A stretch of DNA of 64,000 nt, from IMG/VR virus record IMGVR_UViG_3300036715_002842, positions 1-64,000 of that record, one strand, 5' to 3'. Positions 2 to 52,815 of this stretch are shown piece by piece. Under the pieces are notes generated by a model. The model was not told the origin of the DNA and searched no databases. It saw nothing but the letters and a program-made list of their open reading frames with translations. The stretch is from a virus. Numbering within the stretch: position 1 is the stretch's first letter; every line of letters starts with the position of its first letter. The position numbers and the translations under genes were made by a program.

Positions 2-232
2 CTTTCCGAGGAACATAAAGAGAAGATTCGTCTTGCTCATACTGGTCTTAAGTTGTCGGAAGAAGCAAAAGAAGGAATGCGCGGTAGGGTAACTTCCGAT
101 GAAACAAAACGAAAGCTAAGCGCTGCGTGTAAAGGAAAGAAGCTGACGGAAGAGCAAAAGGCGAAGATGCGTAAACCCCATTCTGCCGAACATAATGCAA
201 AGGTTCGAAAGAGTAGATGGGGATTGGAATGA
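2..232 (+). CDS. 3' end of NUMOD3-repeat protein (probable homing endonuclease), truncated by window edge
   Basis: Frame 2 reads LSEEHKEKIRLAH...TSDETKRKLSAACKGKKLTEEQKAKMRKPHSAEH...GLE*; repeated (S/T)EExKxK(I/L/M) NUMOD3-like units; TGA overlaps next ATG. Confidence 0.75.
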   Translation, partial: LSEEHKEKIRLAHTGLKLSEEAKEGMRGRVTSDETKRKLSAACKGKKLTEEQKAKMRKPHSAEHNAKVRKSRWGLE

Positions 233-597
233 AACTCCTCATTCGAGCAGCTCTGACGATGCCTCTTGAACCTGAGCTTCAAACTCTCATCAAGAAATTT
301 GAAGCAATGGGTGTTAGCATCTCCCTGTTTCAGCATCCAGAGTACCTCAAGCTCAACTCTATCAAGGTACCCAAGGAGAGACGGGGAGAAGGATTGGGTA
401 CGGAGTTCATGGAGAACTTGGTTCGGATCGCCGATCAGTATGGGCTAGCTATATTTTTAACACCTTCGACAGATCTAGGTGCTTCGTCCATCTCCCGTCT
501 GAGGAGCTTCTATTCCCGCTTTGGGTTCAAAAGGAACCAGGGTCGGAACAAGGATTTCCGTAGTTGGGATGGAATGGTACGGCAACCACGTAAATAG
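229..597 (+). CDS. GNAT-family acetyltransferase
   Basis: Acetyl-CoA motif A VPKERRGEGLGT and C-terminal FYSRFGF; ATG 229 overlaps upstream TGA. Confidence 0.8.
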   Translation: MKLLIRAALTMPLEPELQTLIKKFEAMGVSISLFQHPEYLKLNSIKVPKERRGEGLGTEFMENLVRIADQYGLAIFLTPSTDLGASSISRLRSFYSRFGFKRNQGRNKDFRSWDGMVRQPRK

Positions 598-10559: not shown

Positions 10560-12350
10560 TTAATTTGACGGGGAAGGTTTCAGGTGAGCAAAGACAGGAT
10601 CCTCTAAACCGTTTCTTTCGAAAGCCGTCTTCCTCATGTAGCATGGACCACAGCTCCCACAATGGTGTTCTTCGTGGGAATAGCACGACCAAGTCAGTTC
10701 CCAAGGGGTGCCACACTCATTGCCCAGCTTGACAATTTCGTGTTTCATGAGGGTACTGAGAGGATCGATCAGAGTGATCTTTACCCCATTCTGCGTGCTG
10801 TAGGGTAGGATCTTATTGAATAACCTTCCGAACTCTTGTTCGTTATCTGGGTAGCTTCCAGAATTGTGAACAAGAATACCGTTGGCAAGAACGAAATTCT
10901 CATCTCCAGGAACTGAAAGATCGTATACAACTGGCGGGGCTGGAACCGCTTCAATACTAGTAACACCGGAAAATCTAACCCCACAATCTAGGTTTTCGGG
11001 GAATGGAAGAAGTTCCGTTTTTAGAACTTCTCCAAAAATTTCTGGGTAGGGTAGGGAATTATTTGTAAGTTCATCCGTTCGAATGGATCCAATTTTAATA
11101 GTAGATTGATCTTCCTGTTTTCTAACCATGATGGAATGACAAGGGGTAAGATCTACGGTTCTTCCCAAAGTATCTGTTACACGAAGAAGATGATCATAAG
11201 TACATTTATGAACTATTACTTTTGCAACGTCAGATTCCTTACAAACTCCATCTGAATTTACTGAAATGGTTTTTACTCCGATGGTATTCTCCCACTTGGA
11301 GAGGTTTTCAATGGTTTCTACAAAGGTCCTTCCATCCTTCTTTAAAAGAAGCTTCGTATATCCTGGTAAGCTTTCTTCAAGGTTTCCTCCAAATGCGATC
11401 GTACCAATGTTATTCGTTTCGGCATAAGCTGTCAGCACCGACAGCATCAGAAGGTTACGTGCGGAGACCCAATCCATCGCATATTCAGTTCCACGAATTC
11501 CTTCTTGATGGTAGTGCCCTTCGACAATGGATCCTCCGAACACCCTCGGGAGATCCAAGAAGACCAACTTGAAGCCACCATGATCCGCAATTTTCTTAAT
11601 GCGATCAACCTCAACAGATTCGGCAACACACCCATACTGGAAGTGTGCCAGGGTCACTTCATGCCCTTTGGCCTTCAGCATGTAGGCCACGGCGGTAGAG
11701 TCCAGGCCGGAAGAAGCTGCAACCACTACTCCAGGCGCTTGAGTACGGGGAAGCTCTACTGTTTCGAACTCGAAGGTCCGAATGTTGACGCGAAGGATGG
11801 AATAGGGCTTCAGGGCTGAAGAGTATTCAGGGAGCATCTCTGGAATGGATCCAAAGGAGAAGTAGCTCTTCCAATCAGTGAAGAAGTAGATCGGCTTGTA
11901 GTTACAGGCCAGGATCAGGCTATCACCCTCGAACCAAGCCAGTGCGTAGCTACCTTCGATCTTCTGGAGGATGGCTGGGATCTCTTCGAATGGTTGATTA
12001 CGTAGCAGACCTGGAAGGACCATCGAGTCAATCGGAAAGTCCCCAAAGGTCTTATCGTTGGCGATCACTCCATTGTGGACTATCCCATCGTAGGGTTGCA
12101 GGATCTCGATTCGGGAAAGGGCCTCGGTGGTAGGTGTAGCGCGAAAGTTGCCAACCACTCGGCTGAACTTGGAGATGTTTGAAATCTCCTCGTCCGACAT
12201 CTTCTCCAGGCTACGAAATTCTTGATCTGGTTGGCTTCGATCGTAGGCTTTGAAGCCCCAACCATCCCTACCGCGAATGCTTCCATTACGCAGGATGCCA
12301 ACTTTCACTTCCTGTGGGGTCTCTCCGAACCAACCAGCAATGCCGCACAT
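10560..12350 (-). CDS. queC: Gat-QueC: class II glutamine amidotransferase fused to 7-cyano-7-deazaguanine synthase, with mini-intein
   Basis: N-terminal MCGIAG and VHNGVI (Ntn GATase); SSGLDS PP-loop, ARN, YPD, TWSCY...CGSCGPC. Confidence 0.9.
   Translation of the reverse strand: MCGIAGWFGETPQEVKVGILRNGSIRGRDGWGFKAYDRSQPDQEFRSLEKMSDEEISNISKFSRVVGNFRATPTTEALSRIEILQPYDGIVHNGVIANDKTFGDFPIDSMVLPGLLRNQPFEEIPAILQKIEGSYALAWFEGDSLILACNYKPIYFFTDWKSYFSFGSIPEMLPEYSSALKPYSILRVNIRTFEFETVELPRTQAPGVVVAASSGLDSTAVAYMLKAKGHEVTLAHFQYGCVAESVEVDRIKKIADHGGFKLVFLDLPRVFGGSIVEGHYHQEGIRGTEYAMDWVSARNLLMLSVLTAYAETNNIGTIAFGGNLEESLPGYTKLLLKKDGRTFVETIENLSKWENTIGVKTISVNSDGVCKESDVAKVIVHKCTYDHLLRVTDTLGRTVDLTPCHSIMVRKQEDQSTIKIGSIRTDELTNNSLPYPEIFGEVLKTELLPFPENLDCGVRFSGVTSIEAVPAPPVVYDLSVPGDENFVLANGILVHNSGSYPDNEQEFGRLFNKILPYSTQNGVKITLIDPLSTLMKHEIVKLGNECGTPWELTWSCYSHEEHHCGSCGPCYMRKTAFERNGLEDPVFAHLKPSPSN
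10863..11372 (-). mobile_element. mini-intein (170 aa, no endonuclease) in queC
   Basis: Starts SLPGYT, block B LTPCHS, block F VYDLSV, ends ILVHN followed by Ser; removal restores NLEE-SGSYPD. Confidence 0.85.
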
Positions 12351-31520: not shown

Positions 31521-31546
31521 AAAAAAGGGGTCCCGAAGGACCCCTT
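31521..31546 (-). terminator. intrinsic terminator closing the tRNA operon
   Basis: On minus strand AAGGGGTCC-TTCG-GGACCCCTTTTTT. Confidence 0.85.
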
Positions 31547-31630: not shown

Positions 31631-31768
31631 TTACTTGCTACGGTGCGCCTTCACGCGGTTGGGGCTCTTGTAAGCGCCAGTACGAGTCCGGAGATTACGG
31701 TCCTTCACGCGAAGGTTGTTGCGGTTGATACGGTCGAAACGTTCGACCTTGAGTCTGGCCTTGGCCAT
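31631..31768 (-). CDS. small highly basic protein (45 aa)
   Basis: AGGAGG RBS; MAKARLKVERFDRINRNNLRVKDRNLRTRTGAYKSPNRVKAHRSK*. Confidence 0.65.
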   Translation of the reverse strand: MAKARLKVERFDRINRNNLRVKDRNLRTRTGAYKSPNRVKAHRSK

Positions 31769-31839: not shown

Positions 31840-32028
31840 TCATTCTCCTAAGAGTTGTTTCCGTCTGGCAAACGCACGTTCAAGTGCTGGTGCCATCGGT
31901 GGTGGGTTCTGGAGTGCTTCAGCGAAGCACATCTGATCTTGTGCAGTCATGTGGATCGTTTCAACAGTTTCAGAGAAACCTTTGAGCGGATCGTTTGGAA
32001 CGGGTATGTAGTTTACCTCGTTTGTCAT
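31840..32028 (-). CDS. DUF1778 (TacA/AtaR-type) antitoxin C-terminal-like peptide
   Basis: GAGG RBS; ETIHMTAQDQMCFAEALQNPPPMAPALERAFARR resembles the DUF1778 C-terminal consensus. Confidence 0.65.
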   Translation of the reverse strand: MTNEVNYIPVPNDPLKGFSETVETIHMTAQDQMCFAEALQNPPPMAPALERAFARRKQLLGE

Positions 32029-32051
32029 AGCATTTACCTCGGTTCTGGAAA

Positions 32052-32126
32052 TGGTGCCCCCGGTGGGGTTCGAACCCACGACCTGAAGATTATGAGCCAT
32101 CTGCTCTGCCGCTGAGCTACAGGGGT
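32052..32126 (-). tRNA. tRNA-Ile2/Met (CAT)
   Basis: Cloverleaf, loop CTCATAA, CCA end; A1:C72 mismatch. Confidence 0.85.
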
Positions 32127-32610: not shown

Positions 32611-33048
32611 TTGAAGGGCCATCCGACTGCCACTCAAAGGTGGGTGCATATATCGCTAGGCCGAAGGTATTTTGGATGCGGTAGATCTAAGAGATCCGAA
32701 GTCCTTGACAGTTTTGGAAAGAAGGTTCTTCTTGACTCGACTTACGAATTGGAGGTTTCGGAACTTTTGAATCAGCTTGGAATTCGTTGGATTAGACCCA
32801 AACCATTGAGTTGGTATTTGGAGGGCAAGCAGCACCTATACCACCCAGATTTCTTTTTAACGGATTTCAATCTCTATCTGGATCCGAAGAACGACTATCT
32901 AGCTCGAATTGATGTAGGGAAAATTTCCCTAGTAAGTTGGCAGAACGCAGTTGTAATTCGAATTCTAACCAAGAAGCAAATTACACTTGAGTATCTGAAA
33001 GGATTGGTAGCCCCGGAGAATTTTGAAATCTCGACCTACCGCGTGTAA
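32611..33048 (+). CDS. PD-(D/E)XK / TnsA-like free-standing endonuclease (possibly truncated)
   Basis: DSTYE...YHPDFFL...YLDPKND; antisense to the tRNA cluster. Confidence 0.65.
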   Translation: MKGHPTATQRWVHISLGRRYFGCGRSKRSEVLDSFGKKVLLDSTYELEVSELLNQLGIRWIRPKPLSWYLEGKQHLYHPDFFLTDFNLYLDPKNDYLARIDVGKISLVSWQNAVVIRILTKKQITLEYLKGLVAPENFEISTYRV

Positions 33049-34305: not shown

Positions 34306-34587
34306 TGGTGCGCCCGGCCGGAATCGAACCGGCACGCTCTTACGAACAACAGATTTTCATCCTACTTCATGTTGCCATGACCGTTTCCGTTGTAGGCTGG
34401 ACTATCCCTTGACCTTATCCGAGGACTTAGGCCCCCACCGTCTAGTCTCTACACCTTCCTATTTCTAGGCTTGGCTCGGGATTGTCCTAAGGAGTTTCCC
34501 CGAATTTGATGGGATTCACGCTGGAGGTTTCCGACCCAGGTGCTCAAATCATAAGTCTGTGGCGTCTACCAGTTCCGCCACGGGCGC
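34306..34587 (-). tRNA. tRNA-Leu (TAA) interrupted by group I intron
   Basis: Exons 34587-34553 and 34357-34306 splice to ACAGA-CTTAAAA-TCTGT with long V arm and CCA. Confidence 0.9.
34358..34552 (-). ncRNA. self-splicing group I intron (195 nt), trnL(UAA) type
   Basis: Inserted at U^AA; conserved core AAATTCGGGGAA, AATCCCGAGC, GTAGAGACTAGACGG, GATAGTCC; ends in G. Confidence 0.88.
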
Positions 34588-36999: not shown

Positions 37000-37028
37000 A
37001 GGATAGGGTTGAGGGTAAAAATTGTCAA
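37000..37028 (-). promoter_or_regulatory. promoter of the tRNA/tmRNA operon
   Basis: TTGACA-17 nt-TATCCT. Confidence 0.7.
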
Positions 37029-48826: not shown

Positions 48827-49105
48827 CTAACTAGCGAGCGGCAGCTTTTCAATTTCTGCCATGAATGAAGGTGGGGTTGTGAAAGCTGCCGCTCGAGGTA
48901 TCTTAAAGTACGGATCGGTAAATCCGATGGCACCTTCAGAGATGGCATCCTTAATAAGGAACCGTGGAGTGTCCAGGATGACCAGAGTTTCGTTCTTCCA
49001 CTCTTCCGGATACTCTAGAACGAACTGAGCAATAGCGTGCCCAGCTTGAGACATCTTTTGTCCGAAAGAAAGTTTTTCGTCGATCAGAATGTAGAGCTTA
49101 GTCAT
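48827..49105 (-). CDS. PTH2-like peptidyl-tRNA hydrolase
   Basis: KLYILID..LS.GQKMSQAGHA...W...LVIL, resembling the PTH2 N-terminal motif. Confidence 0.7.
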   Translation of the reverse strand: MTKLYILIDEKLSFGQKMSQAGHAIAQFVLEYPEEWKNETLVILDTPRFLIKDAISEGAIGFTDPYFKIPRAAAFTTPPSFMAEIEKLPLAS

Positions 49106-49409
49106 CGCTTTCCTCGTCTTCATCGTTCTTCTTGATGAGATAGGGTTTGAGAGGGTCCATATAAATGACCCCATCCTTCTTGAACGCTTCCTCGATTGCA
49201 GACATGGGAAACTTGAAAGTGTAATAGTTGTCGTTACAACTGTAAGAACAACGGCAAGGATTCACTTCCCGAATATTCGCGATAAGATGGTCACCCTCCA
49301 TTCGAAATCCCTGCAACCTAAAGTTGCTGAAGAGCTTGGAGTGATAGAAGGCGTCCTTGAGCTTCTGTTCAAACTTCTTCGTGGCTTGAAGGGTTTCGGT
49401 GTAAGACAT
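49098..49409 (-). CDS. hypothetical protein
   Basis: GGAG RBS before MSYTETLQ. Confidence 0.65.
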   Translation of the reverse strand: MSYTETLQATKKFEQKLKDAFYHSKLFSNFRLQGFRMEGDHLIANIREVNPCRCSYSCNDNYYTFKFPMSAIEEAFKKDGVIYMDPLKPYLIKKNDEDEESDD

Positions 49410-50480: not shown

Positions 50481-51518
50481 TCATGGCTGACTCCCAGAAG
50501 TAAGGACGTTTCGTTCCATGGGCTGACCGTGCATCCAGTGTTTCACGGTCTGGACATGGGAGGCCCGGACGAACTTCCCAACCTTGACCCGAAACTCAGA
50601 GAAGGGGAATGCCTCGGCCACCCGGACCACATAGCCCTCCTGGCGATCCCATTTGCGCTTGTCCCACAAGGCGCGGATGGCCTTTTCGTCATAGATTCCG
50701 TCGTAGAGTACGGGAACAGGAGTAATCCCCAACAGGGCAAACCATTCCAGCGTCTCGTCCCAGGGGAGGCAGATGTTCCGGTCATCCCAGATGGAGAACC
50801 CAAGCAGGTAGCTGGGAAGGCCGTCGTAGCCGATGGAATGCTTGGCGTAGAGGTTTTCGCCGCACACTCGCCATCCTTCCGGGATGTCCATACGGATCTG
50901 GGACCAGAATTGCTTGACCCAGTTCCGGCTGGGGTGACTGCGCCCATCCAGGCTCCGAGCGTGGATGTGATCCTGGTAGAGGGACGTGTTTTCTCCGTCC
51001 ATTTTCTCGGTAACGATCACCCGCTTCCCTGCGAGGGCTGCGGTGGAATCCATCATTCGGTCGTCGTCGTTCATTCCCTCCGACCATGGCAGATGGTGGG
51101 TCCTGGGATACTTGACCCAGTGGGTGAATAGGCTAAGAACGCCGCCAATGGCGAGCACCTTCTGAACGCTCTCGTCATGGAACAACTCCCCCTTGAGGCG
51201 CTGGCCATTGGGGAGGATGGGATTCCCCCACTTGTCATAAGGCTGGTCCGCGTAGAGATGTGGTGGGAGCAAAGATTTGGTGATCCCGCAGGCGTTACGA
51301 ACATCCTCGGTGGAGATCTCTGTGGTTTCGCACCGCATGTGGTGATCGCCACAAACGGAAGCGCCGTTGTCGAGGTAGTAGCCTCCGTCCGGCCACAGTC
51401 TGCGTTCCAGGATGTGGTGGGCGTCCGCAGCAGGTTCCCCGCAGAAGACACAGCGGCCCTTGGCGCGAGCAAACACGGCCTCGCGGAAAGCGTCTCTGGT
51501 TAGCAGCAGGGCGTTCAT
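50481..51518 (-). CDS. HNH domain fused to RNA ligase
   Basis: N-terminal CVFC...DAHHI...C..HH; KYPRTHHL, VTEKMDGEN, CGENL, EGYVVR. Confidence 0.85.
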   Translation of the reverse strand: MNALLLTRDAFREAVFARAKGRCVFCGEPAADAHHILERRLWPDGGYYLDNGASVCGDHHMRCETTEISTEDVRNACGITKSLLPPHLYADQPYDKWGNPILPNGQRLKGELFHDESVQKVLAIGGVLSLFTHWVKYPRTHHLPWSEGMNDDDRMMDSTAALAGKRVIVTEKMDGENTSLYQDHIHARSLDGRSHPSRNWVKQFWSQIRMDIPEGWRVCGENLYAKHSIGYDGLPSYLLGFSIWDDRNICLPWDETLEWFALLGITPVPVLYDGIYDEKAIRALWDKRKWDRQEGYVVRVAEAFPFSEFRVKVGKFVRASHVQTVKHWMHGQPMERNVLTSGSQP

Positions 51519-51639
51519 TGGGTGGTTCCTTTCGAGTTGGATTCATTACATTTCAGACGCTACCGTATGGCGTACCTGTGGGTGTATCCCCTTGAATTCT
51601 GGCTCGTAGTGTTTCAAAGCGGTTTCACTCTTAAAAAAG

Positions 51640-51711
51640 TCCCCACGGTGGTAGTCGAAACCACGACACAGTGTTTTAGAAGCACCTGCTCTACCGTTGA
51701 GCTACGTGGGG
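51640..51711 (-). tRNA. amber suppressor tRNA (anticodon CTA)
   Basis: CCCCACG/CGTGGGG acceptor, TAGCTCAACGGTAGAGC D arm, GGTGC-TTCTAAA-ACACT, GTGGT-TTCGACT-ACCAC; CCA not encoded. Confidence 0.8.
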
Positions 51712-51825: not shown

Positions 51826-52815
51826 CTATTCATCTGAGTGCGCCAGGGCAGCGAACAGGCACCCCTTCGCGATAGCCTTCAGAGGATCCTCAGCACGAAC
51901 TACCTTGCCAATCTTGATGGGGAGGTTCTGCGCCTTGAGAGCCTCTTCGAACAGTTCGATGAACCCGCCGGGAAGAGAGGTTCCACCTGCGACTGCGATC
52001 TTGGGCGGCTTCTGGAAGTCTGGTAGCTTCGCCATGCCAAGGAGTTTGTCCTTGATTTGCTTGGCTACGTACTCCAACATCGCCTTGTAGTAGTACGAAA
52101 TGGCTTCCTCGGTCTGATCCTTGGGCTTGCGGAGATCAATGATCCCCTCCTTTGCGAGCATAGCCTTGACCGTGGAGATACCCAGAGAGGTGGAAACGTT
52201 CTTGTCAATGTAGTCACCGGAACGGGCTACGGAGAAGTTGAAGGCTTCCACACTCAATTGTGCGCAGCAGACATTGCACATGCCAGCGCCCCACGAAACA
52301 CCAAAGCCAGAAAGATTGTCCTCGAGGAGTTCACTGTAAATGACCGACAGACCTTCATTGAGTGGTACTGGAGTGTAACCCATGTCGGTTAGGATCTTGT
52401 TGAACACATTCGAGTGGTAAACTGCATTGAACTCCTGATCGACTGGATCCCCTGGGACGGAGTAGACCACCTTTTCTTTCTTGGTGGCAGGAGCCCCAAG
52501 GGACTCTTTGATGATCGCCTGGATGATTGGCAGCGCCTTAATCTCATGGGGATTGAGAACACCTTGCGACATAGGTCGCTTGGGCTCACTGTTGAAAGCG
52601 CTAGCGAGCTCCAGTGCCTGCTGACCTAAAGCAGAAATTTCCCCCTCAAGTTCCACGTAAGGTGCACCCACCTTCTTGAGCATCGATTTTACGAAGGGGG
52701 ATTTCTCTACTGGTACGAAGATATTGCGGAAAGCTTTGTACTCGAAGCTCTCCCCATCTGCACCAACCCTCGCAGCTACGATATTTCCAGTTCCCAAATC
52801 TAGTCCACAGGGCAT
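51826..52815 (-). CDS. actin-like ATPase (MreB/ParM/FtsA superfamily)
   Basis: Phosphate-1 GLDLGTGN, LNEG, SWGAG, adenosine AGGTS, AIAKG. Confidence 0.85.
   Translation of the reverse strand: MPCGLDLGTGNIVAARVGADGESFEYKAFRNIFVPVEKSPFVKSMLKKVGAPYVELEGEISALGQQALELASAFNSEPKRPMSQGVLNPHEIKALPIIQAIIKESLGAPATKKEKVVYSVPGDPVDQEFNAVYHSNVFNKILTDMGYTPVPLNEGLSVIYSELLEDNLSGFGVSWGAGMCNVCCAQLSVEAFNFSVARSGDYIDKNVSTSLGISTVKAMLAKEGIIDLRKPKDQTEEAISYYYKAMLEYVAKQIKDKLLGMAKLPDFQKPPKIAVAGGTSLPGGFIELFEEALKAQNLPIKIGKVVRAEDPLKAIAKGCLFAALAHSDE

Follow-up and report, generated by a model that had tools for sequence, protein, structure and literature searches.

Aminoacyl-tRNA acetyltransferases of the TacT type have so far been linked mainly to persistence. 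The GNAT-RHH modules that pair such a toxin with a ribbon-helix-helix (RHH) antitoxin (TacAT, AtaRT, KacAT) are abundant; to our knowledge their role is unsettled, and they are not known to act in phage defence. Our literature search returned no report that GNAT-RHH modules restrict phages, and PADLOC has no model for either component. In the structure of KacA with KacT and DNA, the RHH domain occupies residues 5-51 of the antitoxin and is followed by a hook made of strand betaB (52-56), helix alphaC (57-70), a PPAP linker (71-74) and helix alphaD (75-86) (PMC6698736). The hook wraps one KacT monomer and provides the high-affinity contact. It hinders the binding of acetyl-CoA and keeps KacT from forming the dimer, which is the active form. 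KacA that lacks its first 10 residues, which lie within the DNA-contacting strand, still neutralises the toxin (PMC6698736).

Lytic phages are known to carry orphan antitoxins or mimics of antitoxins against DarTG, among them AdfN/NADAR and DarG-like proteins (one in a chimallivirus), and AdfB of ICP1 follows the same strategy (PMC11257639; 10.1101/2023.12.14.571748; PMC13309987). An orphan TacA has also been described. ORF106 of the lytic Synechococcus phage S-CREM1, which has many tRNA genes, is annotated as a 'Tac antitoxin peptide' (OP535465) and stands without a toxin; its authors proposed that it binds a host toxin (PMC9964418). Here we describe P0001, a small phage gene that encodes the C-terminal, toxin-binding half of a TacA-type antitoxin and no more of it, and compare it with these systems.

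The gene and its operon

P0001 lies in IMG/VR virus record IMGVR_UViG_3300036715_002842 (105,575 bases), of which positions 1-64,000, the whole stretch analysed here, are referred to as the window. The record is estimated by CheckV to be ~38% complete and is a fragment of a large uncultured phage. It contains giant fibre-like ORFs, a radical-SAM gene, helicase and homing-endonuclease genes, and many ORFs that belong to no family. The P0001 ORF (31840..32028, minus strand, coordinates that include the TAA stop; a 62-codon frame for a protein of 62 aa) runs from an ATG at 32028 to a TAA at 31842-31840. Direct reading of the sequence places a Shine-Dalgarno-like GAGG (32037..32040, minus strand) 8 nt before the ATG. 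The ORF finder also returned a longer frame of 86 codons, which is not credible as its start falls inside a tRNA-Met gene.

This tRNA-Met(CAT) (32052..32126, minus strand; ARAGORN; Rfam tRNA, 56.6 bits) is the final tRNA of a minus-strand array that holds one tmRNA and a group I intron besides the 12 tRNAs called by ARAGORN, and that has P0001 at its tail. It stops 24 nt upstream of the P0001 ATG. An earlier reading made from the sequence only had put the gene at the end of the tRNA operon; the placement was right, with one addition. Following a spacer of 71 nt, the operon tail holds a second small ORF (31631..31768, minus strand) that encodes a very basic protein of 45 aa and has AGGAGG 5 nt before its ATG. 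The operon is then closed by a strong intrinsic terminator with a 9-bp GC-rich stem and a T run (31525..31546, minus strand). The 45-aa protein matched no family in Pfam or PHROG, and the ESM Atlas gave no helpful lead; it could be a peptide that binds RNA or ribosomes.

A promoter scan found a sigma-70-like site upstream of the array's first tRNA, TTGACA-17-TATCCT (37000..37028, minus strand; 10 of 12 matches), a candidate start of the transcript that would end with the P0001 ORF. The site is a consensus match and such sites are rarer in this region than in shuffled sequence, so we treat it as weak evidence. The GC content of the P0001 ORF is 48%, against 50% for the phage. Together, the ribosome-binding site, the phage-like composition and the retention of the short form in three diverged homologues argue for a maintained gene.

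Two further elements are located within the array. An Rfam group I intron (34377-34562, minus strand; 57.5 bits, gathering threshold 50) is consistent with an intron-bearing tRNA gene. On the opposite strand, a 145-aa ORF (32611-33048, plus strand) matches PHROG endonuclease families (phrog_15137, E 7e-11) and is probably a homing-type endonuclease.

A TacA-type C-terminal half

Pfam PF08681 (TacA1, formerly DUF1778) matches P0001 with an E-value of 1.1e-5 and 25.7 bits, above the curated cut-off of 21. The match covers only positions 45-79 of the 80 in the model, aligned to P0001 residues 23-57, and a six-frame search of the record agrees. A phmmer search with P0001 over 1.84 billion representative proteins gave 84 matches at E <= 1e-3. 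In the alignment among these relatives, the last 40 residues of P0001 line up with the C-termini of full-length DUF1778 antitoxins along the motif I-x-L/M-S/T-x-x-D-Q-x-x-F-A-x-A-L-x-N-P-P-x-x-x-P-A-L-x-R-A-F-x-R-R. The full-length relatives have in addition an N-terminal ribbon-helix-helix (A-R-L-E-A-R-I ... T-D-F-V), which P0001 lacks. No match to P0001 was found in NCBIfam, PHROGs or PADLOC, and tblastn against 50,697 records of cultured phages gave none for P0001 or for a full-length relative.

The predicted toxin-binding hook comprises residues 21-62 (31843..31968, minus strand), as delimited by the PF08681 match, the C-terminal 40 residues of the full-length antitoxins and the co-fold contacts described below. 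All hook elements are found in this region: a short strand (I-H-M), helix C (DQ..F..AL), a proline linker (NPPPMAP) and helix D (ALERAFARRKQLL), equivalent to betaB-alphaC-PPAP-alphaD of KacA (PMC6698736). The preceding segment of residues 1-20 (31969..32028, minus strand) is not RHH. It is conserved in the two close homologues, with invariant columns (Y-I-P, D-P, K-G-F-S-E) seen in the alignment, and makes no confident contacts in the co-fold model.

Solved antitoxins were reached only with a profile of the P0001 clade, which matches the TacA, AtaR and KacA chains; P0001 alone found no chain among PDB sequences at E <= 10. The same profile also matches a 46-residue C-terminal fragment of AtaR in 6gtq/6gtr, which stands alongside an AtaT chain and which we take to be the neutralising domain. 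This fragment covers the same region as P0001 residues ~20-60 (clade profile positions 46-86), but it is a laboratory truncation rather than a natural gene and is distant from P0001 in sequence. Given that these entries hold both the fragment and the toxin chain, the hook may bind without an RHH domain.

The sequence-only reading had also held that the DNA-binding N-terminus is missing and that no cognate toxin adjoins the gene. Both points stand, as does the assignment to the DUF1778 C-terminal half that it had proposed and that the HMM search above supports. We built an RHH HMM on 35 full-length relatives, 34 of them bacterial and one viral. It found nothing in P0001 and nothing significant in any of the six frames of the 105-kb record (best E 0.084). 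The gene is therefore not split, and no RHH vestige is left. Similarly, PF08681 positions 1-44 are unmatched in P0001, where only 20-22 unrelated residues precede the match. As for a toxin, the next gene is the 45-aa basic ORF, followed by the terminator at 31546-31525. A TacT-type profile built from 27 GNATs encoded downstream of the relatives had no match within the 105-kb record, itself ~38% complete.

The sole GNAT of the record is a minimal ORF of 126 aa (217-594, plus strand) whose best match is to segment 2696-2797 of the 3925 positions of phrog_10691, a giant phage protein family (E 9e-20). As a cognate toxin it was rejected: only the generic GNAT/acetyl-CoA core is shared, hhalign gives a probability of 25% in the comparison with the TacT profile, and the ~90 N-terminal residues that contribute to the interface in TacT-type toxins are missing.

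Judged by these profile matches, P0001 is a true relative of the C-terminal toxin-binding half of the TacA/AtaR/KacA antitoxins. It shares with them the homologous hook that, in those systems, wraps the toxin and blocks both acetyl-CoA binding and dimerisation, and it is modelled in the same pose. It differs in having no RHH domain, and so no RHH dimerisation, operator binding or autoregulation; in having no adjacent toxin gene; in its genomic setting, a phage tRNA operon where the antitoxins have a bicistronic toxin-antitoxin (TA) operon; and in its identity to bacterial C-halves, which is at most 57%. We file it as a derivative of the DUF1778 family rather than as a canonical member, since the hook is present and the RHH domain and adjacent toxin are missing. 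P0001 also shows two features of a phage orphan antitoxin, the neutralising element of a known antitoxin and a phage record without the toxin, within a record that is ~38% complete.

Relatives and their neighbouring genes

We scanned prokaryotic genomes at one per species and obtained 34 loci, which belong to Alpha- and Betaproteobacteria, Planctomycetota, Holophagaceae, Chloroflexota and others. All 34 of these nearest bacterial relatives are full-length RHH antitoxins, and the best identity of P0001 to any bacterial C-half found was 57% over 42 residues. At about 30 of the 34 loci, an ORF of 165-175 aa lies directly downstream and abuts or overlaps the antitoxin stop codon. Each of the six downstream ORFs tested is a Pfam GNAT, and the profile built from 27 of the downstream ORFs finds solved TacT, AtaT and KacT at E-values of 1e-26 to 1e-35. 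From these matches of the neighbouring genes we conclude that the C-half clade of P0001 pairs with TacT-type aminoacyl-tRNA acetyltransferases.

Two close homologues were present in public protein sets, of 64 aa (P0002) and 90 aa (P0003), the latter probably an over-long gene call. They are 79% and 73% identical to P0001 in the alignment and share its short architecture; the last 22 residues are identical to those of P0001 in P0002 and differ at two positions in P0003. Among the 84 phmmer relatives, 9 have a full RHH, about a dozen have a significant partial match and ~60 have no significant match. Several of the RHH-less relatives start within the RHH helices or have unusual N-termini, and look like truncated gene calls or decayed loci. 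As many of the RHH-less C-halves from metagenomes are of this appearance, the short form alone is no proof of a dedicated function. A metagenome scan returned only a complete TA pair of bacterial type (L041).

With P0001 alone as the query, a scan of viral contigs gave no match. Viral contigs do carry members of the family in several forms. Four have complete DUF1778-GNAT antitoxin-toxin pairs (L045-L048). In another, L005, whose locus is also that of L049, a full-length antitoxin stands as an orphan next to a terminase-like gene. Two more lack the RHH domain and have the hook fused to something else, a Cys-rich tail in L004 and a dCMP-deaminase domain in L006.

In the 236-aa ORF of IMG/VR contig L006 (5437-6147, plus strand), a TacA-type C-terminal hook comes after a dCMP/cytidine deaminase domain (Pfam E 3e-7), a fusion for which we have no explanation. 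The ORF of IMG/VR contig L004 (1234-1671, plus strand) is high in GC and places the hook before a conserved Cys/His-rich tail that ends in G-R-C-H-T-A; it has neither an RHH domain nor a toxin nearby, and proteins P0005 and P0087 are of the same type. By eye, the hook also stands behind other antitoxin-type N-termini, an apparent Zn-ribbon of MqsA-like type in P0028 and a HigA-like start in P0016, which suggests that the hook may be a swappable module.

ORF106 of S-CREM1 matches PF08681 only in its C-half, at positions 45-68 and with 15.5 bits, which is below the cut-off, and this match lies behind an unrelated N-terminus. It resembles P0001 in being an orphan, C-half-only TacA-like gene in a tRNA-rich phage without the toxin. 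It differs in its length of 92 aa, its Trp-rich N-terminal half, its weaker match to PF08681 and the lack of adjoining tRNAs, and its similarity to P0001 is undetectable by tblastn. No tRNAs were found near L004, L005, L006 or the S-CREM1 gene, and the association with tRNAs is therefore not general in this sample.

Modelled pose and possible roles

The sequence-only reading had proposed modelling the peptide in complex with a TacT-type toxin. We co-folded P0001, supplied with the clade alignment, and the GNAT toxin of its nearest relative (L007), supplied with a TacT-type alignment. The pair scored 0.88 (runs of 0.88, 0.88 and 0.87), whereas the best of three controls scored 0.00, the score also of the control with an unrelated 154-aa protein in the toxin's place. 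The runs agreed in at least 89% of contacts, and the partner pLDDT was at least 72. In the calibration of the method, 58 of the 80 solved complexes and 2 of the 110 mismatched pairs attained that mark, counts that hold only roughly here because we used our own alignments.

Confident contacts involve P0001 residues 21-60 and L007 toxin residues 64-73, 105-116, 143-152 and 157-164. Residues 105-116 of the toxin form the acetyl-CoA-binding GNAT motif A loop (Q-G-Q-G-Y-G) and its helix, and residues 143-145, within the third of these stretches, closely follow the conserved Tyr141. The modelled pose is thus the known inhibitory one, with the peptide lying over the acetyl-CoA site. As the TacAT, AtaRT and KacAT complexes have been solved, memory of them may have contributed to this result. 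In the model P0001 still appears to fit the binding mode of the family, which speaks of likeness rather than of binding.

On balance, P0001 is probably a stand-alone neutraliser of TacT-type toxins that belong to the host or to a rival element. The sequence-only reading had taken it for an anti-defence protein that protects translation, a role that it may have. The peptide would be made during infection from the transcript of the tRNA/tmRNA operon, and its target would be the monomer of a GNAT toxin of the TacT/AtaT/KacT type that comes from the host or from a co-resident mobile element. Its short strand would pair with a strand of the central sheet of the toxin, helix C would pack on the hydrophobic face, and helix D would lie over the acetyl-CoA-binding loop beside the catalytic tyrosine. 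A toxin blocked in this way could not acetylate aminoacyl-tRNAs, so that phage translation would go on even if the labile antitoxin of the host were lost after infection. We infer that loss of the RHH domain would release P0001 from the stoichiometric repressor complex as well as from operator DNA. A place downstream of a sigma-70-like promoter, in the company of tRNAs and a tmRNA, would fit expression by the host polymerase and a theme of translation protection.

Other phage-supplied neutralisers offer a precedent. Dmd of T4, which acts against RnlA/LsoA, as well as AdfN, the DarG-like proteins and AdfB, all counter a host TA toxin in phages that do not carry the toxin themselves, as P0001 would. 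Their activity, however, has been shown by experiment, and their targets are RNase or DNA ADP-ribosyltransferase toxins. AdfN and the DarG-like proteins work as enzymes that undo the damage, and Dmd shares no homology with the cognate antitoxin, whereas P0001 would be a homologous, trimmed type II antitoxin that sequesters its target. Neutralisation among GNAT-RHH modules is mostly cognate-specific: no cross-talk was seen among three Salmonella TacAT pairs, and four Klebsiella GNAT-RHH pairs gave one cross-reaction only (PMC9431474). This specificity, and the best bacterial identity of 57%, count against P0001 as a stand-alone neutraliser.

Some of the observations can be read in other ways. 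P0001 might be the antitoxin of a TacT-type toxin borne by the phage itself, encoded in the unsequenced ~62% of the genome. Such a split pair could serve, among other ends, timed host shut-off, superinfection exclusion or addiction, and the repressor domain would have been lost because the tRNA operon drives expression. It would be in keeping with the low completeness of the record, with the complete DUF1778-GNAT pairs carried by viral contigs and with the pairing of the P0001 clade with TacT-type toxins. We nonetheless consider it unlikely, as the toxin gene abuts or overlaps the full-length antitoxin gene at 4 of the 5 viral loci and at about 30 of the 34 bacterial ones, whereas P0001 is followed by the 45-aa basic ORF and the terminator, the TacT profile is unmatched in 105 kb, and the one GNAT of the phage falls outside the TacT family. 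Two observations speak for a different partner. The first 20 residues are conserved in the three close homologues yet make no confident co-fold contact, and the fusion of the C-half to unrelated modules in L006 and L004 suggests a portable binding peptide in new settings. The hook might thus have been retargeted to another GNAT-fold enzyme, either a Rim-type enzyme of the host or the 126-aa GNAT of the phage, or the N-terminal segment might engage an unrelated partner. This is rather unlikely, because the most conserved residues of the clade (DQ, F, A, NPP, A..A..L) are among the toxin contacts in the model and in solved complexes, the unrelated 154-aa control scored 0.00, and the phage GNAT lacks the ~90 N-terminal residues that carry part of the interface.

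The intact frame, the good ribosome-binding site and the position 24 nt after a tRNA count against a functionless, drifting relic of a captured TA module that has lost its toxin and RHH half. So are the two homologues of 73-79% identity, which keep the short form and a C-terminus of 22 residues that is identical in one and differs at two positions in the other, and a composition that matches the phage with no RHH vestige in any frame. Decay of this kind is unlikely here, even though ~60 of the 84 relatives lack a recognisable RHH and several have odd N-termini or start inside RHH helices. It is very improbable, lastly, that P0001 and the 45-aa protein form a new two-gene module, in which an antitoxin-like gene comes first and a small toxic or RNA-binding peptide second. 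Gene order and the shared terminator do resemble a type II pair, and the second protein is extremely basic and without a family; against this, a gap of 71 nt and separate ribosome-binding sites part the two genes, and the conserved hook residues fit a GNAT surface rather than a 45-residue peptide.

If P0001 is indeed a stand-alone neutraliser, a phage gene that keeps only the neutralising piece of an antitoxin would be indirect evidence that TacT-type toxins matter in infection. A natural inhibitor of ~40 residues would also define the smallest unit that silences the TacT toxin family. The idea of an orphan TacA is not new, being in print for cyanophage S-CREM1. More tentatively, it is possible that P0001 belongs to an uncharacterised and widespread class of RHH-less 'mini-TacA' peptides of lytic and giant phages, transcribed here together with tRNAs and a tmRNA in a translation-protection operon, and that TacT-type toxins act as abortive-infection effectors that phages need to disarm.

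The sequence-only reading had further linked the peptide to a PTH2-like gene of the phage. This link was not upheld: Pfam PTH2 (PF01981) and bacterial Pth (PF01195) were both unmatched at E <= 1 in all frames of the record, and the candidate ORFs at 48.8-50.1 kb matched no Pfam family. The likeliest candidate (48830-49174) was set aside, as it had no relevant solved structure (only endonuclease V, E 0.95), and its single-sequence AlphaFold model, with a pLDDT of 43, was too poor to use. The gene lies 17 kb from P0001 in a different operon. Overexpression of Pth is known to relieve the toxicity of AtaT, ItaT and TacT (PMC9177977).

Several other genes of the window were noted. In a 596-aa ORF (10560-12350, minus strand), a GlmS-like amidotransferase part (phrog_10428) is joined to a QueC-like part (phrog_1550); the product is possibly a nucleotide- or DNA-modification enzyme. 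An RNA ligase gene (50481-51518, minus strand; Pfam RNA_ligase, E 3e-32) encodes an N-terminal extension of ~165 residues and is adjoined by a solitary tRNA with the anticodon CTA, of amber suppressor type (51639-51711, minus strand). The gene at 51826-52815 (minus strand) encodes a 329-aa protein with a full-length match to Pfam Volactin (E 2.3e-79). Volactin is an actin-like family described from Haloferax, and the gene is an unexpected cytoskeletal one in a phage with a bacterial-type tmRNA.
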